This document shows positions 3,875 to 18,153 of a stretch of DNA of 64,000 nt, piece after piece (the first letter of the stretch is position 1; each line of letters opens with the position of its first letter). The notes beneath the pieces were generated by a model that was not told the origin of the DNA, ran no database searches, and saw nothing but the letters and a program-made list of their open reading frames with translations. The position numbers were made by a program, and so were the translations under genes. Source of the DNA: an uncultured Acidimicrobiaceae bacterium (GTDB taxonomy: Bacteria; Actinomycetota; Acidimicrobiia; Acidimicrobiales; RAAP-2); contig CAWAJT010000008.1 in NCBI GenBank assembly GCA_963782415.1, forward strand, positions 67,105-131,104. The letters run 5' to 3'.

Positions 3875-5104
3875 TCAGTGCTTCGTCGGCAGCGTGCCCG
3901 CCTTCACCAGCGGCGCACAGATGGTGGTGCCCCCGTGCAGGGCCACAAACTTGCCGTCCTTGATGCCCATCTCGAAGAAGCAGCTGTTGTTGGCGGGCTG
4001 ACCCTTCACGAAATGCAGCGGAGGCGACAAGCCGCCGAGCGTCTCGCCTGCGGGCAGCCCGTAGAGGCCCTTGAGGATCTTCGCCGAGGTCAGTGACGTG
4101 GTCGCCGAGGCGCCGGCGGCCTTGACCGCTGCCTGCATGAGCGCTCCGTCCGACCAGGACTGCAGCACGATCTCTCCGAAGTTGGGCCCGCTGGGCACCG
4201 CCGGCGCGTACTTGTCGAGCGCTTTGTACATCGTCGAGGTCGCCGCGTTGTGCAAGAACCACAAGTTGTCCGACTGCGTGTCGATGTTGCCGTTGAAGGC
4301 CGGTATCTTGAGCCACGCCGCGGCGACCGTCCCGTCGCTCGAGAGCTGGCGCGGGGTGTACCCCTGCGCCGCGCAGTCCGTGACGACGTGCTCGACCACC
4401 GAGGAGGCGTCGCCCACCGTCATGGCGGTGGCGCCGGACTGCTTGGCCGCCAGGCACTGGGCCGTGTAGTTCGGGGCGGCGAATCCGATGCTCGACGTGT
4501 AGACGTACTTGATGCCGTAGTGCGCCGCCACCTTCTCCCCCTGGTGGATCGACTCCGCGCAGATGGCGACCTCCACGCAGTAGACGGCGGCCATCTTCTT
4601 CACGCCGGCGTTCTTGGCCACGATGGCACCGACCGAGTTTGTGTAGTTGAAGGTGGCGCCGGCGGGGAAGAAGTCGGCGTTCTGGTAGCCCGAGTCGCTC
4701 TCCTGGCCGCCGAGCACCGGCACGTGGGCCGACGCCACGGTCGATGCGAACGACGGATCCTCGTCGCTGTTGTCGAAGATCGCGACAGCGTGATCCTGGT
4801 GGATGGCGGTCTGGGCGTTGGTCAGCGCCTTGGCCGCGCTGTACCCGTCGTCGAGGATCACCAGGTGCACGTGGTGTCCGGCCAGGCCACCGTGCGCGTT
4901 GACCCACGACGCCCACGCCTGCATGGTGTCGGAGGTCTGGCTAATCGATGAGGCCTCCGGCCCGGTGCAGCTGCACAAGTCGGCGATGGTCACCGTGCCG
5001 TTCGAGCCAGCGGCTCCCGCCGGCGCACTGGACAGCGCGGCGACGCTCAGGACACCTCCGGCGGCGAACGCAGCCATGGCCAGCGCCGCCCCTGTCTTCT
5101 TCAC
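3875..5104 (-). CDS. ABC transporter substrate-binding protein, Leu/Ile/Val-binding (LivK/LivJ) family
   Basis: Periplasmic-binding-protein type I fold and a Sec-type signal (KKTGAALAMAAFAAGGVLSVAALSSAPAGAAG). GTG 5104 is the probable start; the ORF track extends to 5176. Divergent from the liv permease genes. Confidence 0.7.
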   Translation of the reverse strand: MKKTGAALAMAAFAAGGVLSVAALSSAPAGAAGSNGTVTIADLCSCTGPEASSISQTSDTMQAWASWVNAHGGLAGHHVHLVILDDGYSAAKALTNAQTAIHQDHAVAIFDNSDEDPSFASTVASAHVPVLGGQESDSGYQNADFFPAGATFNYTNSVGAIVAKNAGVKKMAAVYCVEVAICAESIHQGEKVAAHYGIKYVYTSSIGFAAPNYTAQCLAAKQSGATAMTVGDASSVVEHVVTDCAAQGYTPRQLSSDGTVAAAWLKIPAFNGNIDTQSDNLWFLHNAATSTMYKALDKYAPAVPSGPNFGEIVLQSWSDGALMQAAVKAAGASATTSLTSAKILKGLYGLPAGETLGGLSPPLHFVKGQPANNSCFFEMGIKDGKFVALHGGTTICAPLVKAGTLPTKH

Positions 5105-5365
5105 GCGTGCCAACACCAGCACTCCCCCCTGGCCGGCCCCCCGGCCCCACCCGACGGCGTCACCCGACGGCGTCACAGCGCGCCGTTCCTACCGTACGAC
5201 CACCCGCTCGGTCACCCGAACAAGCACACATCGATCGCTGTCGGGGACTATACCGACCCCTTAGTGTCGTGTCTCGGCACATCAACCTCGTCATGGAGGA
5301 CGTCACGCATGGCCGTGGGGGCGCGGGCAGGGGTAGGGGTACCGGCAAGGCCGGCGAGCTGAACG

Positions 5366-8203
5366 ATGTCGGACTTCTTGCCGTTCATCGTCATCGGCAT
5401 CGCCACCGGCGCGGTGTACGGGCTCGCCGGCGTCGGCCTCGTGTTGGCCTACAAGACGTCGGGCATCTTCAACCTCGCCTATGGCGCCATTGCGGCGCTC
5501 ACGGTCTTCGTCTTCTACTGGCTGCACGACGAGCACGGCTGGCCGTGGGGCCTGGCCGCCGCGGTGTGTGTCCTCGTCATCGGGCCGGCCGAGGGTCTGC
5601 TCATGGAGCTGCTGGGCCGGGCACTCGAACGGGTGGGTGCCACCTTGAAAGTGGTCGCCACCGTCGGTCTCCTGCTCATCGTCCTCGGCGTCGGCGAGCT
5701 CTGGTACGGGAACAACGAGGTCAACTTCCCGCCGTTCCTGCCCACGTCGACCGTGCCGATCCTCGGTGTGAACATCGGGTGGGACCAGATCACCGTCACG
5801 ATCATTTCGCTCCTGGCGACGGCGGTCCTCTACTGGTTCTTCCGTTCCGTGCGCATGGGGTACGCCATGCGCGGCGTCGTCGACAACCCCGACCTCGTGT
5901 CGATGACGGGCGAGAACCCCATCCGCGTGAGGCGCTGGGCCTGGATCATCTCCATGACCTTCTGCTCCCTGGCCGGCCTCCTACTGGCGCCGGGCCTCAG
6001 CCTGAATGCCGTCATCATCTCGACCCTCGTCGTCTATGCCTTTGGGGCGGCGGCGATCGGCGGGTTCTCGAGCATGCCGCTCACGTTCCTCGGCGGGCTG
6101 CTGGTCGGCATCGCCGGGTCCCTGACGACGAAGTACTCGGGGTCGATCACCTGGCTGGCCGGCTTGCCGCCCGCCATTCCGTTCATCGTGCTCTTCGTGG
6201 CCCTGTGCGTCACGCCGAAGGCGAAGCTGGCCGAGCGCAGGGTGGTGACCACGCTCCCGGTCATGAAGTCGTGGTACGCGCCGTGGCGAGTACGGGGCGT
6301 CACGTTCGCCATCGGGTTCGTGGTCCTGTGCCTGATCCCGACCCTGGTGGGCGACCACCTGGCCATCTGGGCCAGCTTCCTGACCGACGCCATTCTGCTG
6401 CTGTCGCTCGGACTCCTGGTGCGCGTGTCGGGGCAGATATCGCTCTGCCACCTCGCGTTCGCCGCCGTCGGCGCCGCTTCGTTCGCGCACTTCACCGACA
6501 GCTTCCATCTCCCGTGGCTCCTGGCCCTGCTGTGCGCCATGCTCGTCGCCCTGCCCGTGGGCGCGATCGTGGCCATCCCGGCCATCCGGCTGTCGGGTCT
6601 GTTCCTCGCCCTGGCAACGCTGGGGTTCGGGATCTTGCTCCAGTACCTCTTCTACTCGACGAACCTCATGTTCGGACTGACGACGTCGGGGATCCCGGCC
6701 CCCCGGCCGGGCGTCAGCGTCTTCGGCCTGTCGCTCGGCTCGGACAAGGGCTTCTACTACGTGCTGCTGGCGGCGGCGGTCCTGAGCACCGCGGTGATCA
6801 TGGTGATCCAGCGCAGCCGGATGGGTCGCCTGCTGGGGGCGCTGGCCGACTCGCCGCTCGCGCTCGAGACACAGGGCGCCACGACCAATGTGATCAAGGT
6901 CCTCGTGTTCTGCATCTCGGCCGCGTTCGCCAGCCTTGCCGGCGCCCTCATCGCCGTCGAGTTCCACTACGCCGTCGGGGCCAACTACGACCCGTTCCTG
7001 TCGCTCGTTTACGTCGCGCTCGTCGTCATCGCCATCGGAGGGGAGCCGTGGTACGCGCTGCTCGCCGCGCTCGGCGTGTCGATCATTCCCGGCTATTTCA
7101 CCTCCAACAACGTCACCACGTACTTGCAGATCTTCTTCGGCATCACGGCGGCGGCCTACGCCGTCTTCCAGAGCAGGACGGCCACCGTGCCGCTCCACCT
7201 CCGCCAGCTGCTCGACCGCGTCGGTGGTCGCCGGCCCGAGGAGACGGCGAGTGCGGAACAGGTGCGTCGCGCCGTCGTGGACGCCGCCGCGGCCGAGGAG
7301 ACCGCTGCTCGCGTGGACAGCGCCGCAGCGAGGCCCGCCGCAAGCGCCGGCGACGAGCCGGCCGCAGAGACGACCGGACTGCAGGTCCGGCGGCTCTCCG
7401 TCCGTTTCGGGGGCGTCAGTGCCGTGCAGGACGTGAGCCTCACCGCGCCGATGGGATCCATCACGGGCCTCGTCGGGCCCAACGGCGCCGGGAAGACGAC
7501 GACGTTCAACGCGTGCTCCGGGCTGGTGAAGCCGGACGACGGCGAGGTCGTCCTGCACGGCCGGGACGTCACATCGGTGGGTCCGTCCGGACGGTCCCGG
7601 CTGGGCCTCGGCCGGTCCTTCCAGCGGGTCGAGCTGTTCTCCTCGCTCACCGTGCGCGAGAACGTGGCGCTCGGCCGGGAGGCCTCGTTGGCGGGGGCGA
7701 ACCCGGCCCGTCAGTTGGTGAGCACTGCCCCGCAGCGCGCCACGGTGCGGAGGGCGGTCGAGGACGCCATGGAGCTGACGGGGATCGGACCGCTGGCGGA
7801 GCTCCAGGCCGGCCTGCTGCCGACCGGCCAGCGCCGGATGGTCGAGCTGGCGCGCGTGCTGGCCGGTCCGTTCGACCTCCTGTTGCTGGACGAGCCGTCG
7901 TCGGGGCTCGACGCCGGCGAGACGAGGCGCTTCGGCGAGATCCTGACCGGCGCCGTCGCCGAGCGGAGCGTCGGGATCCTCCTGGTCGAGCACGACATGG
8001 CGCTGGTGCGCCAGGTCTGCCGGCACATCTACGTACTCGACTTCGGCCGGCTGGTCTTCGAAGGCACCGCGTCCGAGATGTTGGCGAGCCCCATCGTTCG
8101 CAACGCCTACCTCGGTTCGGAGGTCGGCCCGGTTGCGTCCGCCGCGGTGCGTGGGCCCGCTCCCCGGGCGGCGACCCCTCCTGCGGGAGCGTCCGGTGCT
8201 TGA
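5366..8203 (+). CDS. fused branched-chain-amino-acid-type ABC transporter: LivH permease + LivM permease + LivG ATPase in one polypeptide
   Basis: Residues 1-290 are LivH-like TM, 300-640 are LivM-like TM, then a ~60-aa Ala/Glu-rich linker, then a Walker A ABC ATPase (GPNGAGKTTT) with LSGGQ-like and Walker B motifs. Single continuous 945-aa ORF. Confidence 0.75.
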   Translation: MSDFLPFIVIGIATGAVYGLAGVGLVLAYKTSGIFNLAYGAIAALTVFVFYWLHDEHGWPWGLAAAVCVLVIGPAEGLLMELLGRALERVGATLKVVATVGLLLIVLGVGELWYGNNEVNFPPFLPTSTVPILGVNIGWDQITVTIISLLATAVLYWFFRSVRMGYAMRGVVDNPDLVSMTGENPIRVRRWAWIISMTFCSLAGLLLAPGLSLNAVIISTLVVYAFGAAAIGGFSSMPLTFLGGLLVGIAGSLTTKYSGSITWLAGLPPAIPFIVLFVALCVTPKAKLAERRVVTTLPVMKSWYAPWRVRGVTFAIGFVVLCLIPTLVGDHLAIWASFLTDAILLLSLGLLVRVSGQISLCHLAFAAVGAASFAHFTDSFHLPWLLALLCAMLVALPVGAIVAIPAIRLSGLFLALATLGFGILLQYLFYSTNLMFGLTTSGIPAPRPGVSVFGLSLGSDKGFYYVLLAAAVLSTAVIMVIQRSRMGRLLGALADSPLALETQGATTNVIKVLVFCISAAFASLAGALIAVEFHYAVGANYDPFLSLVYVALVVIAIGGEPWYALLAALGVSIIPGYFTSNNVTTYLQIFFGITAAAYAVFQSRTATVPLHLRQLLDRVGGRRPEETASAEQVRRAVVDAAAAEETAARVDSAAARPAASAGDEPAAETTGLQVRRLSVRFGGVSAVQDVSLTAPMGSITGLVGPNGAGKTTTFNACSGLVKPDDGEVVLHGRDVTSVGPSGRSRLGLGRSFQRVELFSSLTVRENVALGREASLAGANPARQLVSTAPQRATVRRAVEDAMELTGIGPLAELQAGLLPTGQRRMVELARVLAGPFDLLLLDEPSSGLDAGETRRFGEILTGAVAERSVGILLVEHDMALVRQVCRHIYVLDFGRLVFEGTASEMLASPIVRNAYLGSEVGPVASAAVRGPAPRAATPPAGASGA

Positions 8204-8897
8204 GCTCGAGGCCGTCACGGCCGGCTACGGGGAGACGGTGGTGCTGCGCGACGTCTCGCTCTCGGTCCCCGACTCGGGCGTCGTGGCGCTCCTCGGCCCC
8301 AACGGTGCCGGTAAGACGACGACGCTGCGTGCCGCGTCCGGGCTCATCAAGCCGATGCGCGGCCGCGTCCTGCTCGACGGCGAGGACGTCACGGGACGCA
8401 AGCCCTACGTCATGGCCCGGCGCGGCCTCTGTCACCTCCCCGAGGGGCACGGCATCTTCCCCTCGCTCACGGTGAAGGAGAACATCGTCTTGAACTCGCC
8501 CAAAGGCACGGAGAAGGAGAGCCTGGCCAAGGCGGGCGAGCAATTTCCGGTGCTGGCGGCCCGGCTCGGGCAGCAGGCCGGCAGCCTCAGTGGTGGCGAG
8601 CAGCAGATGCTGGCGCTGGTGCGGGCCTCGGTCACCGAGCCGCGCATCGTCGTGGTGGACGAGGCATCGCTCGGGCTCTCGCCACTGCTGGTGGATCAGG
8701 TCTTCGAGGCGCTCAGGCAGATCGTGGCCGGGGGTACGGCGCTGCTGCTGGTGGAGCAGTACGTGACCCGTGCGCTGGAGCTGGCGGACACGGCCTACAT
8801 CATGAACCGCGGCCAGGTCGTCCACTCAGGTCCGGCCGCCGACCTCCAGGGGGAAGAGGTGTTCGAGCGGTATCTCGGCATCGAGGTCGGCCCGTAA
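8196..8897 (+). CDS. livF: branched-chain amino acid ABC transporter ATP-binding protein LivF
   Basis: Walker A (GPNGAGKTTT), signature LSGGEQQ, Walker B VVVDE. GTG 8196 overlaps the stop of the upstream gene (GTGCTTGA), suggesting translational coupling. Confidence 0.8.
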   Translation: MLELEAVTAGYGETVVLRDVSLSVPDSGVVALLGPNGAGKTTTLRAASGLIKPMRGRVLLDGEDVTGRKPYVMARRGLCHLPEGHGIFPSLTVKENIVLNSPKGTEKESLAKAGEQFPVLAARLGQQAGSLSGGEQQMLALVRASVTEPRIVVVDEASLGLSPLLVDQVFEALRQIVAGGTALLLVEQYVTRALELADTAYIMNRGQVVHSGPAADLQGEEVFERYLGIEVGP

Positions 8898-9024: not shown

Positions 9025-9405
9025 TCAGTCGGTGCCGAGCACCTCGGCGGCCACCCGCATGGCCGACCCCGCCGCGGGGACGCCGGCGTAGATCGACGTG
9101 TGCATGAGGACCTCGACGATCTCCTCGCGTGAGATCCCCACGTTCAGCGCGCCGGCGATGTGCGACCGCAGCTCCTCGGGCTGACCCAGCGCGGCCAGGA
9201 GGGCGACGGTGATCATGGAGCGGTCCCGCACCGGCAGGCCCGGGCGCGACCAGATGTCGCCGAACGCGCTCTGCTGCACGTGGTCGAAGTAGTCCGGTGC
9301 CAGCTTGGCGGCTGGGAACTGGCCGCCCGGTCCCTTGAGGATGGCGGGCCAGAGTCGACCCTGTATTTCGCGGCCGGTGGCCCGGCGCTCGTCGCTCGTC
9401 GTCAT
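9025..9405 (-). CDS. carboxymuconolactone decarboxylase (CMD/AhpD-like) family protein
   Basis: CMD-family helix pattern (ITVALLAALGQPEELRSHIAGALNVGISREEIVEVLMHTSIYAGVP). ATG 9405 is preceded by GGAAGGAG; the ORF-track N-terminal extension lacks an RBS. Confidence 0.7.
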   Translation of the reverse strand: MTTSDERRATGREIQGRLWPAILKGPGGQFPAAKLAPDYFDHVQQSAFGDIWSRPGLPVRDRSMITVALLAALGQPEELRSHIAGALNVGISREEIVEVLMHTSIYAGVPAAGSAMRVAAEVLGTD

Positions 9406-9612
9406 GTTCCGACTCCTTCCCACTCCAATGGTTGACTGCTGCCGTGCTCCGCCGCCACCGTGCGCCGGCGTCACTTTGGCGTCGTCGAACCTTGATCCGT
9501 TGACTGCCCGGCCGTGCATCGCTATTGTGCCCGAACTTGGTTGGGGGCGGGTCCGAGGCTTGCGGCTACGACAAGCTGGAAATCAATTCATGGTCCAATC
9601 AAGGGGGTCGTT

Positions 9613-11490
9613 GTGCTGACGTCACGTCGCTCGCTCGCAGGTCTCGCGCATCCTGCACGGACTCGAGCGCCCATGCTGTTGTTCGGCGGTCTCAGCCTCA
9701 TCACGTTGATCGGCTCTGTCGCACTGGGCGGCGGCGCCGCCGCAGAAGCGGCCGGAGCCGCCCCCGACCAGATGGCAGCCCACGTCACCTTTACGCCCGG
9801 TGCGTCTCCGGCCTACGCAGCTGACGCGGCGGACCCGAACGTCGTGTACTCCGGTGGGACGTACTACGCCTTCACCACGGGAACCCCAGCCGGCAACTTC
9901 ATCCAAGCCCTGACCGACACCTCCGGCAGTCCCGCTTCGGGCTGGCAGCCCTATGCCGGTGGGTCGGGATCGAGTGCACTGCCCAACCCGCCGTCCTGGG
10001 AAACGCACAACACGCAGACCTCCCCCGGCGTCTTCAACTACGGGGGGCACTGGGTCATGTTCTACGACGCCTCGCAGTATCCCCATCCGAACGACTCGGG
10101 GTACAGCTGCATTTCCGTGGCCACGGCGGCGACGCTCAGTCCCCCCGTCTTCTCGGACTCTTCGACCCAAGGCCTGGAGTGCGGCACGCCCGGTGTCGGG
10201 GTGCTCGACCCGAGCCCGTTCGTCGACCCCGCCACGGGCATCGCCTACCTCCTCTGGAAATCCAATGACGGTGGGGGCTCGGCGGCGCCCTCGCAGATCT
10301 GGTCGGCGCGCCTGAGCGCCGACGGCACCAGCATCGTCGGCACCCCGACCGTCCTGCTGACCGTCGACCAGCCGTTGCTGCCGTGGGAGACGACCACGGA
10401 CGACCCGCAGATGGTCTTCGCCGCCGGTCAGTACCACTTGTTGTTCTCCGGCGGCGACTTCACCAATTCGAGCTACAACGAGGCGCTCACCACGTGCTCG
10501 GGGCCACTTGGCCCGTGCAGCCAACCGACGGCTCCCTTCCTCACCACGTACGGCACCGCCTACGGACCCGGTGGTGGTGCACTCTTCCAAGACGCCCAGG
10601 GGAACTGGTGGCTCGGCTACGCCGCCTGGTCGCTGCCGTGCACCTCCTACAGCTGTGGCGCCCTCAGGGAGCTGTACACCGCACCCATCGATCTGAGCAA
10701 CGGTCTGTCCGTGCCCTGCAACCCGCCCAGCGGCGCGCCGACGGGCTATCGCTTCACAGCCAGCGACGGCGGCATCTTCACCTACGGCAATCAACCATTC
10801 TGCGGTTCGACGGGCGCCATCCACATCAACCAGCCGGTCGTCGGGATCGCCAACACGGCCGACGACGGCGGCTACTGGACGGTCGCTCGGGACGGCGGCA
10901 TCTTCTCGTTCGGTGATGCGCAGTTCTACGGCTCGGCGGGTTCCATCCACTTGAACCAGCCGATCGTGGGCATGGCCGCCACGCCGAACAGCGGTGGGTA
11001 CTGGCTGGTGGCGTCCGACGGCGGCATCTTCTCCTACGGCAACGCAACGTTCTACGGCTCCACTGGGTCGATCCACCTCAACCGGCCCATCGTGGGCATG
11101 GCATCGACACCCGACGGCGGCGGGTACTGGCTGGTGGCCTCCGACGGCGGGATCTTCTCCTACGGCGATGCCACGTTCTACGGTTCGACCGGTTCGATCC
11201 GGCTCAATCAGCCGATCGTCGGCATGGCCGCCACGCTGAGCGGGCACGGGTACTGGCTGGTGGCCTCGGACGGGGGCATTTTCAACTACGGCGATGCCAC
11301 GTTCTACGGATCGTCCGGCTCGATCCGCCTCAACCGGCCGATCGTCGGCATGGCGGCGACCTCGAGCGGGCACGGGTACTGGCTGGTGGCCTCCGACGGC
11401 GGCATCTTCAGCTACGGAGATGCCCAGTTCTACGGCTCGACGGGGTCCCTCCACCTCAATGCCCCGATCGTGGGTATGAGCGGGCCCTGA
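9613..11490 (+). CDS. secreted protein: N-terminal GH43-like five-bladed beta-propeller glycoside-hydrolase domain + six C-terminal 42-aa tandem repeats (putative beta-propeller)
   Basis: GTG 9613 after an AAGGGGG RBS. Signal with a twin-arginine-like SRRSLAGL, then a hydrophobic stretch and AxA. GH43-like motifs (DPNVVYSGGTYYAF; VLDPSPFVDPATGIAYLLWKSNDG). Six repeats GYWLVASDGGIFSYGDAxFYGSTGSIxLNxPIVGMAAT. Confidence 0.65.
   Translation: MLTSRRSLAGLAHPARTRAPMLLFGGLSLITLIGSVALGGGAAAEAAGAAPDQMAAHVTFTPGASPAYAADAADPNVVYSGGTYYAFTTGTPAGNFIQALTDTSGSPASGWQPYAGGSGSSALPNPPSWETHNTQTSPGVFNYGGHWVMFYDASQYPHPNDSGYSCISVATAATLSPPVFSDSSTQGLECGTPGVGVLDPSPFVDPATGIAYLLWKSNDGGGSAAPSQIWSARLSADGTSIVGTPTVLLTVDQPLLPWETTTDDPQMVFAAGQYHLLFSGGDFTNSSYNEALTTCSGPLGPCSQPTAPFLTTYGTAYGPGGGALFQDAQGNWWLGYAAWSLPCTSYSCGALRELYTAPIDLSNGLSVPCNPPSGAPTGYRFTASDGGIFTYGNQPFCGSTGAIHINQPVVGIANTADDGGYWTVARDGGIFSFGDAQFYGSAGSIHLNQPIVGMAATPNSGGYWLVASDGGIFSYGNATFYGSTGSIHLNRPIVGMASTPDGGGYWLVASDGGIFSYGDATFYGSTGSIRLNQPIVGMAATLSGHGYWLVASDGGIFNYGDATFYGSSGSIRLNRPIVGMAATSSGHGYWLVASDGGIFSYGDAQFYGSTGSLHLNAPIVGMSGP
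10744..11487 (+). repeat. six near-identical 126-bp tandem repeats inside the secreted-protein CDS
   Basis: Repeated DNA such as ctggtggcctccgacggcggcatcttctcctacggcgatgccacgttctacgg with a period of 126 bp; copies 3-5 are roughly 90% identical. Confidence 0.8.
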
Positions 11491-11505
11491 GCCGAGCGCC
11501 CATCG

Positions 11506-12681
11506 CTACGTCCCGACACCCTCCACTCCCAACAGGTTGACCGTGGCGATGCTGCCGCCGCCCACCAGGTGGGCCAGCGCCACCGTTGCCCCGTCGACCT
11601 GGCGCCCCGTGGCCTGGCCGCGCAGCTGCAGCACGGCCTCATGCAGCATGGCGGTCCCGGTCGGGCCGCCCGGGTGCCCGCGGGCGAGCAGGCCGCCGTC
11701 GGTGTTGAACGGGATGCGCCCACCGGGTCCCGTCTCACCTTCGACGACGAGCTTCTCGCCCTCGCCCTCGGCACAGAACCCGAGCAGCTCGTAGTACTCA
11801 AGCTCCTCGTTGACGAAGGCGTCGTGGCAGAAGGCGACGCTCACGTCGTCGGGTCCGAGCCCGGCCGCCTCGTAACATTGAAGAGCCGTGTCGCGCGTCA
11901 TGGTGGCGGGGCCGACCACCGGACCGACGAAGGTGTGGCCCGGCGAGTAGGTCTCCGACATGAGGGCCGAGGCGAGGGCGCGCACGACGGGGCGGTCGGG
12001 CCGGCGGGCGCGCACGAGGTCCTCGCGGGCCACGATGATGCAGGCGGCGCCGTCGTCGGGCGGGCAGCACATCATGGTGGTGAGGGGCTCGGCCACCAGG
12101 CGGGCGGCCAGCACCTCCTCGGCCGTCACCACGTGGTCGGACTGGCGGTGTGCCGTCGGGCAGGTGGCGCCGTAGTTCCAATTCTTCGCCGCGATGGTGG
12201 CGAAGTGCTCGGGCGTCGTGCCGCGGTCGTGCATGCGGCGCTGCGCCCACAGCGCGAAGTAGGCCGCGGGCAGGATCGGCGCGTCGATCTGGTCGCGTCC
12301 CGCCCCGCGTCCACCACCCCCGACCATGTCGGTGAACTTGTCGAAGCACAGGGCCATGGCCACGTCGGCCCGGCCCGAGCTGACGGCCCAGGCCGCCTCG
12401 CGGAACGCCACCAGCCCCGTGGCCGAGGCGTTCTCAATGTGCGTCACCGGGAGCCCCGTCAGCCCGAATTCCTTCATGGCCTTGATGCCGAGCATGGAGG
12501 CGGGCTGGATGTAGCCGACGAAGGCCTCGTCGATGTCGGCGAGGGTCATGCCCGCATCGTGCAGCGCGAGGAGCCCGGCGTCCCGGGCCAGGTGGGCACC
12601 GGGGATGTCCTTGAACATGCCGAAGCGCACCATGCCGATGCCGGCCACGGCGACGCCGTCGAACTTCATGCCGTGGCTCAT
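11506..12681 (-). CDS. SCP-x/Ltp-type thiolase (lipid-transfer-protein-like, non-acetoacetyl thiolase)
   Basis: Thiolase fold, and genetic pairing with an upstream DUF35 OB-fold protein. The ATG follows directly after the stop codon of the upstream DUF35 gene (stop 12678-12680, start 12681). Confidence 0.75.
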   Translation of the reverse strand: MSHGMKFDGVAVAGIGMVRFGMFKDIPGAHLARDAGLLALHDAGMTLADIDEAFVGYIQPASMLGIKAMKEFGLTGLPVTHIENASATGLVAFREAAWAVSSGRADVAMALCFDKFTDMVGGGGRGAGRDQIDAPILPAAYFALWAQRRMHDRGTTPEHFATIAAKNWNYGATCPTAHRQSDHVVTAEEVLAARLVAEPLTTMMCCPPDDGAACIIVAREDLVRARRPDRPVVRALASALMSETYSPGHTFVGPVVGPATMTRDTALQCYEAAGLGPDDVSVAFCHDAFVNEELEYYELLGFCAEGEGEKLVVEGETGPGGRIPFNTDGGLLARGHPGGPTGTAMLHEAVLQLRGQATGRQVDGATVALAHLVGGGSIATVNLLGVEGVGT

Positions 12682-14249: not shown

Positions 14250-14264
14250 GCATAGGTGGTATGC
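14250..14264. promoter_or_regulatory. LysR-type dyad box GCATA-N5-TATGC in the lysR/phosphoesterase divergent promoter
   Basis: Inverted repeat GCATAGGTGGTATGC 10 bp upstream of the lysR start codon; fits the T-N11-A autoregulatory site pattern. Confidence 0.4.
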
Positions 14265-14333
14265 CCGAAATGGGTCTTGTGGCGGGTGGCCGCGGGTGCT
14301 CAGGTTAGGCGGTTCGCAATGGGGAGGTCACGA

Positions 14334-16560
14334 ATGACGGGTCTGAGACGAGCGCTCACGCAGGGTGCGGCCGGAGTGCTCCTGGTGCTCACGGGTGCCA
14401 CCGTCGGTCAGGTTGTCAGCACCTCGGGAGCCGCCGCGGCCCCTGTCGTGCGTGCCGCGCTCGCCCCCGGCACCATCAACAACGTCCTCGTCATTCAGCT
14501 CGAGAACGAGGGCGCCACCGAGACGTTCGGACCCGGTTCCGTGGCCACCTATCTCAACGGGACGCTCGTCCCCAAGGGCGAATTGCTCCAGAACTACTAC
14601 GCCACCGGCCACGTCAGCCTCGACAACTACATCGCCGAGATCTCCGGGCAGGCACCGACGCCGTTGACCGACTCGGACTGCAACCTCACCGGCTACAGCA
14701 ACGTCACGCCGGGAACCGACGATCCCAACACGGCGAAGTACCCCGGACAGGTCGACGGGAACGGTTGCATCTTCCCGGCGCCGACGGCAACGACCACTGG
14801 GGCGCCGACCATTGCCGATCAGCTCGACGCGGCGTCGCCGCCCAACCCGACGACGCACGTGGCGTCCTGGCGGGAATATGCCGAGGACATGGGGAACGAC
14901 CCGACCCGCGACGGCGGTGTGGCCGACCCGCTTGGCGGGACCGATTGCGCCCATCCGACGGTCGGCGGCACGGACGGCGCCGCAGTGGCCGAAGCGTCCG
15001 ATCGGTATGCGACGCGTCACAACCCCTTCATGTATTTCCACTCCGTCATCGACAACACCGCCGAGTGTGACGCCAACGTGGTGCCGCTCGGCAAGGCGAC
15101 CGTGGGCACGCCCAGCACGTTCAACAGTGTGTCGCTGCCCGACACCTTCACGGGCCACTTGGCCAACGACCTCTCGAGCACGTCAACCACGCCGAAGTTC
15201 GGCTTCATCACGCCCAACCTGTGCGACGACGGCCACGATGCGACCTGCGCCGGCACCAACGTGGAGGGCGGCAACACGGGCGGACTCACGGCGGCGGACC
15301 TGTGGCTCAAGCACTGGATGCCACTGATCATGGCGTCCCCCTCGTACCAATCCGGTCAGATGCTGGTCGTGCTCACGTCCGACGAGGCTGATGTCACGGA
15401 CACGAGCGCTTGCTGCAACGAGCAGCCCGGCCCGAACTGGGCTTTCCCCGGTCACAGCCCGCTGCTCGGCGCGGCACCGACGACTCCGGGCGCCGATCCT
15501 GGTGGCGGGAGGATCGGCGCCCTGCTGCTCAACGCCGACTACATCGTGCCCGGGACCGTCGACACGACTGGGTTCTACAACCACTACTCGGCTCTGCGCA
15601 GCTACGAAGACCTGCTCGGGTTGACGACCGGTGGGGTCGATGGCGAGGGTCATCTGGGGTTCGCCGCCGCCACCGGATTGACGCCCTTCGGCCAGGACAT
15701 CTTCCAGCCCAACCAAGCACCGACCATCACCACCAATCCACAGAGCCAGTCCGTCGTCACGGGGGGATCGCTGACCTTCACTGCCGCCGCCGACGTCACG
15801 ACGCCGAGCATCCAGTGGCAGGCCTCCGTCAACGGCGGGGGCAGTTGGTTCAACGTATCCGGGGCGACGAACCCCTCGCTGACGGTGAACAACCTGAACA
15901 GTTTCGTGAACGGCTGGGAGGTCAGGGCCGTCTTCACGAACCACGCCGGCGCCGCGACGTCCAGTGCCGCGACCATTTCGGTGACCGCACCGGCGACCTC
16001 CGTGACCCTGCCGTCGAACAACGCCACGGTGTCGGGGTCGGCCATCCTCGACGCGCTCGGCATCGCCCGGGGTGTCCACGGTGCACTACGAGCTGAGCGG
16101 TGGAAGCCTCACCAACGCCGTGATCGCCACCGCCACCCCGACCATCTACGGCTGGCTGGCGCATTGGAACACCACCACGGTGGCGAACGGGACATACACG
16201 CTGTCGAGCGTGGCGTCTTCGGGCGGCCTCACGGGCACGAGCCCGGGCATCGCAGTGACCGTCAACAACCCACCACCGGTGACCGCCGTCGTCCTGCCGT
16301 CGAACAACGCCACGGTGTCGGGGTCGGCCATCCTCGACGCGCTGGCATCGCCCGGGGTGACCACGGTGCACTACGAGCTGAGCGGTGGAAGCCTCACCAA
16401 CGCCGTGATCGCCATCGCCACGCCGACCATCTACGGCTGGGTGGCGCATTGGAACACCACCACGGTAGCGAACGGGACATACACGCTGCAGAGCGTGGCC
16501 TCCTACGCCGGCGGCGTCAGCGGCACCAGCGCTCCCATCACCATTTCGCTCGGCAATTGA
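14334..16560 (+). CDS. secreted phosphoesterase-family protein (non-haemolytic phospholipase C / AcpA acid phosphatase family) with two tandem ~95-aa C-terminal Ig-like repeats; apparent +1 frameshift near 16058
   Basis: ATG 14334 after GGGGAGG; RR-containing signal peptide. Phosphoesterase motifs (FITPNLCDDGHD; NHYSALRSYEDLLGL). The protein continues in frame 16072..16560 after a 1-nt insertion (gcgctcggcatcg versus gcgctggcatcg in repeat 2). Confidence 0.65.
16000..16557 (+). repeat. two tandem ~285-bp near-identical repeats encoding the duplicated C-terminal domain of the phosphoesterase
   Basis: ctgccgtcgaacaacgccacggtgtcggggtcggccatcctcgacgcgct recurs at 16008 and 16294; the repeats are >90% identical. 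Confidence 0.8.
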
Positions 16561-16589
16561 TGCCGGCCGGCGGTCTGGCCCGGTGGGCG

Positions 16590-18153
16590 CTAGATCTCTG
16601 ACGCGTTCTGTTCCCAGTAGGGATCACGCAGGCGACGCTTGTAGAGCTTCCCGTTGGGGTCGCGGGGCATGGTCCCGGTGAAGTCGATGGACCGCGGGCA
16701 CTTGTACTTGGCCAGCTTGGTGGCGCAGTGGTCGAGTAGCTGCTCGGCCAGTGCTCCGGACGCGGCGTAGCCGGCCGCTGGTTCCACCACCGCCTTGACC
16801 TGCTCGCCCCATTCGTCGTCGGGGATGCCGAAGACGGCGGCGTCGCCGACGGCCGGATGCGAGAGCAGCGCCGCCTCGACCTCGGCCGGGTACACGTTGA
16901 CACCCCCCGAGATGATCATGTCGATCTTGCGGTCGCGCAGGTACAAGAACCCGTCCTCGTCGAGCTCCCCCATGTCCCCGACGGTGAAGAGATCGCCGTG
17001 GCGGTTGGCGGTCGTCTTCTCGGGATCGCCCTTGTAGCGGAAGTCGCCTCCCATGAGCTTCATGTAGACCGTCCCGACGGTGCCGGCGGGCAGCTCGTTG
17101 CCCTCGTCGTCGAGGATCTTGATGTCCGCCCCCTGCCAGGGGCGGCCCACCGTTCCGGGGTGAGCCAGCCAGTCCTGTGGCGTGGCCAGGGTGCCGCCGC
17201 CCTCGGTGGCGCCGTAGAACTCGTAGATCACCGGCCCGAGCCACTCGAACAGGCGCCGCTTGAGTTCGATCGGACACGGTGCCGCGGCGTGGATCACTTG
17301 GCGCAGCGACGAGACGTCGTAGCGGGCGCGCACGTCCTCGGGGAGCTGCATGAGGCGGTGCAGCTGTGTAGGCACCATGGCCGTGTCGGTGACCCGATAG
17401 CGCTCTATCAGGCGCAGCGCCTCTTCGGCGTCCCACTTCTCCATGAGCACGACGGGGTGCTCGAAGTGGGCCGAGAAGTAACCGAAGGACAGCGGGGACA
17501 TGTGGTACATCGGCGACGTCACCAGGTGCACGGCGTCCCCGCCCGGTTCGATCCCGTAGCGCAACAGGTTGCCGCTGAAGACCTGCACCCAGGTCTCGGG
17601 GTCGAAGGAGGGGAGCGTGCGCTGGACCGCCTTCGGGCGTCCGGTCGTCCCCGAGGTGTACTGCATGAATTGCCCGGCGACGCGGTCTTCCGGCGGCCCG
17701 TCGGGCTGGCCGGCCAGCCCGGCGGCGAGCGGGGTGAAGCCTCCGATGTCGCCGCCCACGGCGATGCGGCCGGGCTCGGGCACGCCGGACTCGAGTGCGG
17801 CCGCGCCAGCGACGGCGGCGAAGCGCTCGTCGGCCACGAGGGCCTTTGCTCCGGCGTCGCGGCAAGATGTAGGAGACCTCGTCCACGGTGAGGTTGCTGT
17901 TGAGCGGGACGAAGTTCCATCCGGACTGGAACAGCGCCATGAGCACAATGAGCACCTCGGCCCGGTTGGGCAGGAGCATCGCGACGGGGTCACCCGGCTG
18001 CAGCCCGCGCTGGCGCAGTGCCCGCACGAGCTGGTTCGCCTTGGCGTGGACGTCTCCGGCCGTCCACGCCGTGCCGTCGGGATCGATCACCGCGAGGCGG
18101 TCGGGCTCGACCGTGGCGGCCGCCCAGAAGCCGCGCAGCTGCGGCGGGCTCAC
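16590..18153 (-). CDS. long-chain-fatty-acid-CoA ligase / AMP-dependent synthetase (FadD-like); 1-nt frameshift near 17870
   Basis: AMP-binding motifs (YTSGTTGRPKAV; GYGATE-like; C-terminal PRDPNGKLYKRRL). The GTG start at 18153 overlaps the acyl-CoA dehydrogenase stop (GTGA). The N-terminal 95 aa lie in the 16624..19119 frame and the remainder in the 16590..17993 frame; one extra base in ttgcCgcgacgcc breaks YIL-RDAGAKALV. Confidence 0.7.

Follow-up and report, generated by a model that had tools for sequence, protein, structure and literature searches.

What is a sixfold repeated, 42-residue unit doing at the C-terminus of a secreted glycoside hydrolase? The question is raised by a gene in the window analyzed here, a 64-kb (64,000-nucleotide) stretch of a contig from an uncultured Acidimicrobiaceae bacterium. 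Its product combines a divergent GH43 domain with an array of six such units, which no model in the Pfam and NCBIfam scans of this protein matches. The array is predicted to fold into a closed six-bladed beta-propeller, and we consider it about an even bet (probability roughly 0.5) that this propeller is a multivalent lectin-like module retaining secreted proteins on the cell wall. What points in this direction is that many secreted enzymes and surface proteins of one lineage, otherwise unrelated and with peptidoglycan hydrolases among them, have the module in common. The gene and its array are laid out as follows, with E-values from the repeat hidden Markov model (HMM):

9613..11490, + strand: coding sequence, 625 amino acids (aa) plus stop, start codon GTG; signal peptide, GH43 domain, linker and predicted six-bladed propeller
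10744..11487, + strand: propeller module, residues 378-625, six 42-aa repeat units
10744..10869, + strand: repeat 1 (GYRFTASDGGIFTYGNQPFCGSTGAIHINQPVVGIANTADDG), the most divergent blade (E=7.6e-27)
10870..10995, + strand: repeat 2 (E=7.9e-29)
10996..11121, + strand: repeat 3, a homogenized central blade (E=9.7e-30)
11122..11247, + strand: repeat 4, with 87% DNA and 92% aa identity to repeat 5 (E=7.3e-30)
11248..11373, + strand: repeat 5 (E=6.7e-29)
11374..11487, + strand: repeat 6 (38 aa), with PIVGM as its last strand (E=1.7e-27)

Both the gene and the repeat array are real. The initial annotation of this DNA had placed an open reading frame (ORF) at 9613-11490, and this placement holds, as the ORF ends at 11490 on the + strand, its start is backed by a Shine-Dalgarno sequence and a promoter-like site, and its frame by the GC content at third codon positions (GC3). 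The six 42-aa repeats that it reported are likewise present as in-register units, starting at nucleotides 10744, 10870, 10996, 11122, 11248, and 11374, and Tandem Repeats Finder independently gives a period of 126 for the array (5.5 copies, score 719). When the repeat HMM was run over the 64-kb window, it returned these six units (E 1e-27 to 1e-30) and no further copy. The description of the DNA copies as near-identical did not hold, since pairwise DNA identity among the units is 65-87%, copies 3-5 reach 82-87% rather than about 90%, and where units agree in an amino acid, 29-56% of the codons are synonymously different. The longest exact stretch common to two copies is 30 nucleotides, and the amino acid identity between blades (76-92%) exceeds their DNA identity. 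An exact-sequence look-up of the window protein found no record.

For the repeat module, AlphaFold2 (AF2) supplied with a 66-sequence alignment produced a model with a predicted local distance difference test score (pLDDT) of 96.9 and a predicted template-modeling score (pTM) of 0.91, all five models scoring at least 96.5; a single-sequence AF2 model (pLDDT 44.6) was dropped in favor of the alignment-based one. DSSP assigns three regular strands to each unit of the model (GYWLVA, GIFSY, and PIVGMA), with a conserved 16-residue excursion (GDAxFYGSTGSIxLNx) between the second and third strands. The first six residues of the model, which are the last six of the linker (10726-10743), form no strand, and pLDDT is lowest (86) in the opening block of 10 residues. 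The first unit, which begins with GYRFTA, has no PIVGM strand preceding it, and a final PIVGM strand occupies model residues 248-252, after which the chain ends. Judging from this strand order, the C-terminal PIVGM strand most likely completes the first blade and closes the ring in the manner of a "velcro." A Foldseek search of the model against PDB returned generic propellers only (TM 0.5-0.65). RSL, AAL, TolB, YVTN S-layer, YWTD, NHL, and WD40 propellers are among its structural neighbors. The second, six-bladed propeller that had been anticipated for the C-terminus is upheld as a confident prediction, and on the AF2 model the module is a closed six-bladed beta-propeller.

As far as its sequence can be placed, the repeat is a new family of this known fold. 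When 13 diverse modules were compared with Pfam at E-values up to 10, matches to NHL, Ldl_recept_b, Kelch, WD40, PQQ, and PD40 were absent; RCC1_2 (PF13540) matched one of the 13 at E=0.001, and PF00415 matched none. These HMM scans agree with the earlier remark that the unit is not a WD40, Kelch, NHL, or RCC1 repeat, and they assigned no known family to it. A search of all PDB sequences with the module profile gave a marginal WD40 match (E=0.0012) and the RCC1-like domain of HERC2 at E=0.17. An IMP dehydrogenase match in PDB (E=8e-4) was rejected as driven by the composition of a Gly/Ala-rich stretch aligned to a TIM barrel, in conflict with the all-beta model. True NHL, PD40, and PQQ_2 domains do occur in some proteins of the family, as separate N-terminal domains whose models do not touch the module. 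When the module profile was aligned by hhalign with the NHL domain of one such protein (P0394), the probability was 0.1%, and for the PD40 and PQQ_2 domains of P0409 and P0385 it was 0.1% and 0.4% respectively, equal to a GH43 negative control, although the sensitivity of this homology test is limited by templates that are single sequences. Established wall-anchor families (SLH PF00395, CWB2 PF04122, LysM PF01476, choline-binding PF01473, and LGFP PF08310) were found neither in the window protein nor in the 13 modules at E up to 10. Precomputed annotations (Pfam up to at least PF27111) contain no family common across the homologs, and literature searches on the motif and the concept found no description of the repeat.

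Several names attached to homologs stem from the repeat itself. Labels of Ribosomal_L24e, SH3_YKFC_2nd, CSD_RNase_II, and SH3_Myosin-XVIIIa go back to sub-threshold matches of 15-20 residues inside the repeat and were rejected. The sub-threshold Ribosomal_L24e match falls on the GYWLVASDGGIF hairpin, occurs in 11 of the 13 modules, and caused the JGI name "ribosomal protein L24E" on P0038, P0043, P0045, P0055, P0098, and P0488; this naming looks like a systematic misannotation.

The module can be set against the propeller families that it most readily brings to mind. It has the six-bladed fold of NHL propellers, but the NHL HMM (PF01436) misses it, even in P0394, which has genuine NHL repeats elsewhere; unlike the sensor domain of Mycobacterium tuberculosis PknD, which sits on a kinase, it is attached to secreted enzymes. 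YWTD/LDL-receptor class B propellers (LRP4, nidogen, and LDLR) are only 9-13% identical to it, are not matched through Ldl_recept_b (PF00058) at E<=10, and are missed by the PDB sequence search with the module profile; they are moreover eukaryotic, EGF-flanked, and protein-binding. A resemblance to RCC1/BLIP-II is visible in the motif, "...V.IA..G..h.LAL...G.VYSWG....G.LG" there and "PIVGMA..p.G.GYWLVASDGGIFSFGDA.FYGS" here, and in the three regular strands per unit. BLIP-II has three-stranded blades and is actinobacterial. The module nevertheless has six units in its array, compared with seven blades in RCC1/BLIP-II, and the RCC1 signal is not significant. Beta-propeller lectins (RSL, AAL, and UmbA4) have no sequence similarity to the module, and RSL differs further in being assembled from two-blade subunits, whereas the six blades here lie in one chain.

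Exactly six units are present in 66 of 81 orthologs, and most exceptions were traced to frameshifts or contig ends; in L076, for example, the array runs on in another frame, which indicates a frameshift. Three short-read k141 metagenome-assembled genomes (MAGs; L060, L067, and L072) have 3-4 repeats in arrays near position 7000, with central units identical in amino acid sequence; these arrays have probably collapsed, a real deletion being the alternative. Could the six-copy array in the window be mis-assembled in the same way, expanded or collapsed, so that the true gene is different? The k141 orthologs with mutually identical units lend the idea what substance it has, but it is hardly credible for the window, where the copies differ at 13-35% of bases and the 30-nucleotide limit on exact runs between them makes collapse by the assembler unlikely. 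Here the array is read in one unbroken frame, and its two outermost blades are distinct. The preponderance of six-unit orthologs points the same way: many of them sit on MFD-series MAG contigs of 0.1-5.5 Mb, regarded here as long-read assemblies, and six units give a closed, high-confidence propeller model.

The manner in which the blades resemble one another suggests how the array evolves. Blades 3-5 within one protein are more alike (0.84-0.87) than same-index blades between orthologs (0.76-0.80), and blade 1 keeps its own identity (0.70 between orthologs versus 0.61-0.66 to other blades), from which we infer that the interior of the array is homogenized by gene conversion or unequal exchange, combined with strong purifying selection. 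Since amino acid identity remains high despite the synonymous divergence, each blade is under the same constraint. Near-invariant positions of the unit are G1, Y2, D8, G9, G10, F12, G15, F19, G21, S22, G24, L28, N29, P31, V33, and G34, whereas positions 13, 18, 20, 23, 25-27, 30, and 37-42 vary when orthologs are compared. Positions 18, 20, 23, 25-27, and 30 are variable spots of the 16-residue inter-strand loop, the frame of which is otherwise invariant.

The module is by no means confined to GH43 proteins. When 1.84 billion representatives of 50%-identity clusters were searched by phmmer, 19,555 proteins matched at E<=1e-3, 15,887 at 1e-10, and 9,571 at 1e-30, and module-bearing proteins range up to 2,537 aa. 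Six is the commonest number of units (69 of 120 homologs), and the 42-aa period is kept in 354 of 380 spacings. Many of the top representatives (P0121-P0264) have 3-6 matched stretches, and some proteins carry two or more complete modules; in P0216 (660 aa), residues 121-359 are a second copy of the module (hhalign probability 100%). Every organism named in the source records belongs to Acidimicrobiia/Acidimicrobiales or to Micromonosporaceae (Actinoplanes friuliensis and Catellatospora methionotrophica). The architecture of GH43 plus propeller was found at no fewer than 80 genome loci (56-88% identity) in MAGs of uncultured soil Acidimicrobiaceae/Acidimicrobiales, and some genomes hold two copies of the gene. 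In about 0.9 Mb of sequence flanking 80 orthologs, other genes account for 13 additional arrays, and as many as three module genes can fall within 14 kb. At two loci (L022:10197-13203 and L028:5616-9098, minus strand), two more module genes lie directly downstream of the GH43-propeller ortholog, their partner regions having no Pfam family.

The partners of the module are diverse, and it may be N- or C-terminal to them. Among homologs of at most 434 aa, 58 of 120 have a genuine Pfam partner, which in 45 of the 58 acts on peptidoglycan (NlpC/P60 30, YkuD 4, CHAP 3, M23 3, 3D 2, transglycosylase-like 2, and VanY 1); the others are CAP (4), GH43 (4), subtilase, M10, Spherulin4, TIG, and an Ig-like domain. 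One homolog from a cultured organism, P0390 of Actinoplanes friuliensis DSM 7358 (425 aa), is labeled "Esterase" but consists of a six-bladed module (32-259) and a Peptidase_M23 domain (302-391). In the census of proteins up to 745 aa, the partners are PQQ_2 (25), CHAP (5), GH43 (5), M23 (4), Big_3_5 (4), subtilase (3), TIG (3), DUF4397 (3), PD40 (3), YkuD (2), and SpoIID (1), while a random 63 of the top 150 representatives have fn3, Big_3_5, Big_1, SdrD_B, TIG, cadherin-like, and beta-helix partners, together with subtilase, GH99, GHL15, Spherulin4, and GSDH. Whatever the fusion partner, the blade sequence remains 55-80% identical. Other means of surface attachment are rare in these proteins, as LPXTG-like motifs were found in 3 of 307 and C-terminal transmembrane segments in none of the 307.

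Taken together, we propose a Sec-exported two-propeller enzyme consisting of a divergent GH43 domain and a closed six-bladed propeller that is itself probably non-catalytic. The six near-identical blades would each present the same binding site, making the module multivalent and lectin-like. Its ligand would be peptidoglycan or a glycopolymer attached to the wall, in either case a repetitive polymer in the envelope of the producer itself. Module-bearing secreted enzymes and surface proteins, the GH43 enzyme among them, would thereby be kept at the cell surface, where the GH43 domain may process glycan near the cell or act on an envelope polysaccharide. In this picture the gene model, the GH43 membership, the six-bladed fold, and the extent and partners of the family are observed, and export, a propeller without catalysis, multivalent binding, and a wall ligand are inferred. 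Wall retention best fits the symmetric blades, the breadth of the partners, which are mostly not glycosidases and are rich in peptidoglycan enzymes, the many paralogs, the rarity of other anchors, and the apparent restriction to Actinomycetota. The producer's envelope seems a likelier target than the substrate of the hydrolase, because the partners are mainly peptidoglycan enzymes, proteases, and Ig-like surface domains. The range of partners is parallel to that of SLH-, CWB2-, and choline-binding-anchored proteins, and unlike that of a module binding a nutrient polysaccharide. A further step, that the module is the main non-covalent cell-wall anchor of Acidimicrobiia and is also used in Micromonosporaceae, is more tentative, and we would put it somewhat below even odds. 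Like the established Gram-positive anchors (SLH, CWB2, LysM, choline-binding, and LGFP), the module counts peptidoglycan hydrolases, proteases, glycosidases, and Ig-like adhesin domains among its partners, and it shares with them a repeated structure, placement at either end of the protein, restriction to a lineage, and many paralogs per genome; its fold and sequence are wholly different from theirs, without a Pfam match, and its wall binding is a proposal. A six-bladed propeller lectin that recognizes a wall polymer has a precedent in Streptomyces UmbA4, which binds wall teichuronic acid (bioRxiv 10.1101/2025.04.24.650519).

The main rival to wall retention is that the propeller is a carbohydrate-binding module (CBM) that binds the polysaccharide cut by the GH43 domain (e.g., arabinan, xylan, or galactan of plant, fungal, or microbial origin) and thereby concentrates the enzyme locally on its substrate. 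This is close to the lectin-like glycan targeting suggested by the initial annotation, of which the lectin-like role remains plausible while the status of a GH43 accessory does not, given about 20,000 protein clusters with mainly other partners. GH43 enzymes often carry CBMs, the six-bladed lectins RSL and AAL are among the structural neighbors, other glycosidase-type partners exist (GH99, GHL15, and Spherulin4), and GH43 proteins of the same clade that lack the propeller have a bulb-type lectin (PF01453) or DUF4214 repeats instead. Most identifiable partners, however, do not degrade polysaccharides of this kind (peptidoglycan endopeptidases/amidases, L,D-transpeptidases, SpoIID, proteases, CAP, and Ig-like domains), with GH43 accounting for only 4 of 120 and 5 of 119 proteins in the two censuses. 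The similarity of the blades across partners argues for one common ligand rather than partner-specific substrates, and no sugar-uptake or glycan-utilization genes adjoin the gene, which leaves substrate targeting as a serious but doubtful alternative, perhaps half as probable as wall retention.

Two other functions appear less probable still. The propeller might dock on a proteinaceous surface layer or a partner protein, or oligomerize, in the manner of YVTN S-layer proteins or TolB-Pal; TolB, YVTN S-layer, and protein-binding YWTD, NHL, and WD40 propellers are indeed among its structural neighbors, and many long members have Ig-like, fn3, cadherin-like, and beta-helix domains, some with more than one module. 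Yet in propellers that bind proteins the blades have usually diverged and the interface is single and asymmetric, whereas the blades here are 76-92% identical and kept alike, a better fit to multivalent binding of a repetitive polymer; no conserved partner gene lies nearby either, and we regard docking as unlikely. That the propeller binds a small molecule or modulates the fused enzyme, as the PknD sensor or the inhibitor BLIP-II does, we regard as highly improbable: its one foothold is the weak motif resemblance to RCC1/BLIP-II (HERC2 and a single RCC1_2 member), which is not significant, and it has to contend with dozens of unrelated catalytic and non-catalytic partners in either order and with the lack of a kinase or signaling partner in any census.

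Several points weigh against wall retention and temper our estimate of it. The lineage restriction is based on about 20 source names and the 80 loci of one ortholog group. The homolog listings stop at proteins about 1.75 times as long as the query (434, 567, and 745 aa), so that the censuses describe restricted size classes and are biased, and the sample from the top 150 representatives favors proteins with several modules. Roughly one in two partner regions is without a Pfam family, and another propeller heads the partner list of the longer proteins (PQQ_2, 25 of 119). The likeness of one blade to the next is owed in part to gene conversion and not to selection on a binding site only. No conserved neighborhood points to a pathway around the GH43-propeller gene, and a Kyte-Doolittle heuristic for signal peptides was passed by cytoplasmic controls as well and was discarded as evidence.

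The appended propeller represents a very large repeat family that is unmodeled, and its probable wall-anchor role in a poorly known lineage would be new. Acidimicrobiia are abundant in soil and water, almost uncultured, and little known in their envelope. About 20,000 clusters at 50% identity have no Pfam or NCBIfam model, solved structure, or mention in the searchable literature, and the repeat causes false labels such as the ribosomal one above. If the module does retain proteins on the wall, one HMM would suffice to pick out exported, wall-associated proteins across thousands of MAGs, and the module would define the surface proteome of the lineage (autolysins, L,D-transpeptidases, proteases, glycosidases, and adhesin-like proteins). 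It would then be the lineage's counterpart of the SLH, CWB2, and choline-binding domains, recognizing an unknown wall glycopolymer or peptidoglycan feature; a conserved wall ligand would be implied, and the compact, highly symmetric propeller could serve as a tag for targeting to the wall or as a scaffold for lectins. The GH43 enzyme, in turn, would process glycan at the cell surface instead of diffusing freely. The cultured members of the family, Actinoplanes friuliensis and Catellatospora methionotrophica, make the proposal directly testable.

The enzyme part of the protein is ordinary. By its match to PF04616, the N-terminal domain is a bona fide, if divergent, GH43, as the initial annotation had recognized from its motifs; the match spans profile positions 4-283 of 288 (residues 99-395 of the longest ORF, from GTG 9514). 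Its main features, with catalytic residues numbered from GTG 9613, are:

9808..10698, + strand: GH43 catalytic domain (Pfam PF04616; E=8.9e-21, 74.9 bits against a cutoff of 32.2)
9832..9834, + strand: Asp74 in the motif A-D-P, placed at the GH43 general base by aligning the family's N-terminal DP motif
10207..10209, + strand: Asp199, the GH43 pKa-modulator position in the motif L-D-P-S-P-F, aligned to "iDtSlF" and "iDvdvF" of 3kst and 3qz4
10399..10401, + strand: Asp263, aligned with the GH43 general-acid Glu (E-G-P in 3kst)
10699..10743, + strand: short Pro-rich linker (...LSVPCNPPSGAPT) between the domains, from the sequence

Asp74 is Asp in 73 of the 81 orthologs, 5 of the other 8 being alignment gaps, and Asp199 is Asp in 79. 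At position 263, the orthologs have Asp (44) or Glu (36), followed by [DN] and an invariant Pro, and Glu259, four residues upstream, is invariant. The general acid of GH43 enzymes is Glu as a rule, and an alternation of Asp and Glu among close orthologs is thus unusual. A profile of the clade matched 12 GH43 chains in PDB, the best being 3kst (3.4e-13) and the next 4qqs and 3qz4, under the deposited names "endo-1,4-beta-xylanase" or merely "glycoside hydrolase family 43"; 3kst and 3qz4 are presumably uncharacterized Bacteroides structural-genomics entries. Several endo-alpha-1,5-L-arabinanases also matched in this search (E 1e-7 to 1e-3). Close relatives of the domain carry generic names ("family 43 glycosylhydrolase"), and all named organisms are Acidimicrobiales. 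The domain is probably active, with a specificity that its sequence does not assign. Within the same clade, proteins without the propeller (P0306, P0307, P0321, and P0346; P0302 and P0310) have an N-terminal bulb-type lectin (PF01453) or a C-terminal DUF4214 repeat region. Compared with modular GH43 enzymes (clan GH-F), the protein is similar in its PF04616 match, its Asp base and Asp pKa modulator, its probable secretion, and its appended, probably non-catalytic module; it differs in belonging to a divergent clade (best PDB relatives at E 1e-13 to 1e-3), in having Asp and not Glu at the general-acid position, and in an appended module that is no catalogued CBM.

Export probably proceeds through an ordinary Sec signal, with a cleavage site placed from the sequence. 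The signal peptide and the expression signals upstream of it are:

9500..9528, + strand: sigma70-like promoter (TTGACT, 17-nucleotide spacer, TATTGT), a consensus match only
9601..9607, + strand: Shine-Dalgarno sequence AAGGGGG, 5 nucleotides 5' of GTG 9613, by direct reading
9613..9750, + strand: probable Sec-type signal peptide with 4 Arg in the n-region, h-region LLFGGLSLITLIGSVALGGG, and AEA before the putative cleavage site; boundary approximate

The window protein begins with MLTSRRSLAGLAHPARTRAP-MLLFGGLSLITLIGSVALGGG-AAAEA, and AG follows the putative cleavage site. In all orthologs, the n-region carries positive charge and is followed by about 20 hydrophobic residues and an AxA-type site, which shortly precedes a conserved mature N-terminus (...HVxFxPSxSPAY..DAxDPD). 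The Tat-like SRRSLAGL that had been read into the signal peptide finds no backing: 14 residues, charged ones among them, separate the RR from the h-region that follows it, the RR is not conserved (orthologs often lack it, and many are plain Sec-type, e.g., MRSTLRVKVL... and MQTRKVLLAA...), and Tat-like motifs occur in 3 of 307 proteins of the repeat family. Conserved cysteines are numerous in the ortholog alignment, which is consistent with an extracytoplasmic protein.

The sigma70-like site is the sole promoter-like match in 9300-11800, where shuffled sequences give a mean of 0.2. Because this site and the Shine-Dalgarno sequence precede it, GTG 9613 is preferred as the start. The longest possible start, GTG 9514, was rejected, as the promoter-like site overlaps it, and the alternative ATG 9673 has no Shine-Dalgarno-like motif on its 5' side. 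The GH43-propeller frame has GC contents of 0.57/0.59/0.86 at the three codon positions, and its GC3 of 0.86 is coding-like. An antisense ORF of 610 aa (9622-11454, - strand) was rejected as a gene because its codon-position GC (0.86/0.59/0.57; GC3 0.57) mirrors that of the sense frame, and it is regarded as a shadow ORF, an artifact of high GC.

The neighbors of the gene (a Liv-type ABC transporter, a CMD-family protein, thiolase/DUF35, and a LysR regulator) are unrelated to it, and a conserved operon was rejected, synteny extending only to the 4-5 closest genomes. In the transporter region, a Peripla_BP_6 binding protein is encoded at 3875-5176 (- strand), a 945-aa fusion of a branched-chain amino-acid ABC permease and ATPase at 5366-8203 (+ strand; GC3 0.93), and a second ATPase after this fusion at 8133-8897 (+ strand). 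An ORF of 1175 aa at 4948-8475 (+ strand; GC3 0.53) has no Pfam family and was rejected as an artifact over the real gene at 5366-8203. Downstream, at 14256-16601 (+ strand), lies an ORF of 781 aa with a coding-like GC3 of 0.81 and no Pfam family, which has weak relatives (about 38% identity) in five orthologous loci.

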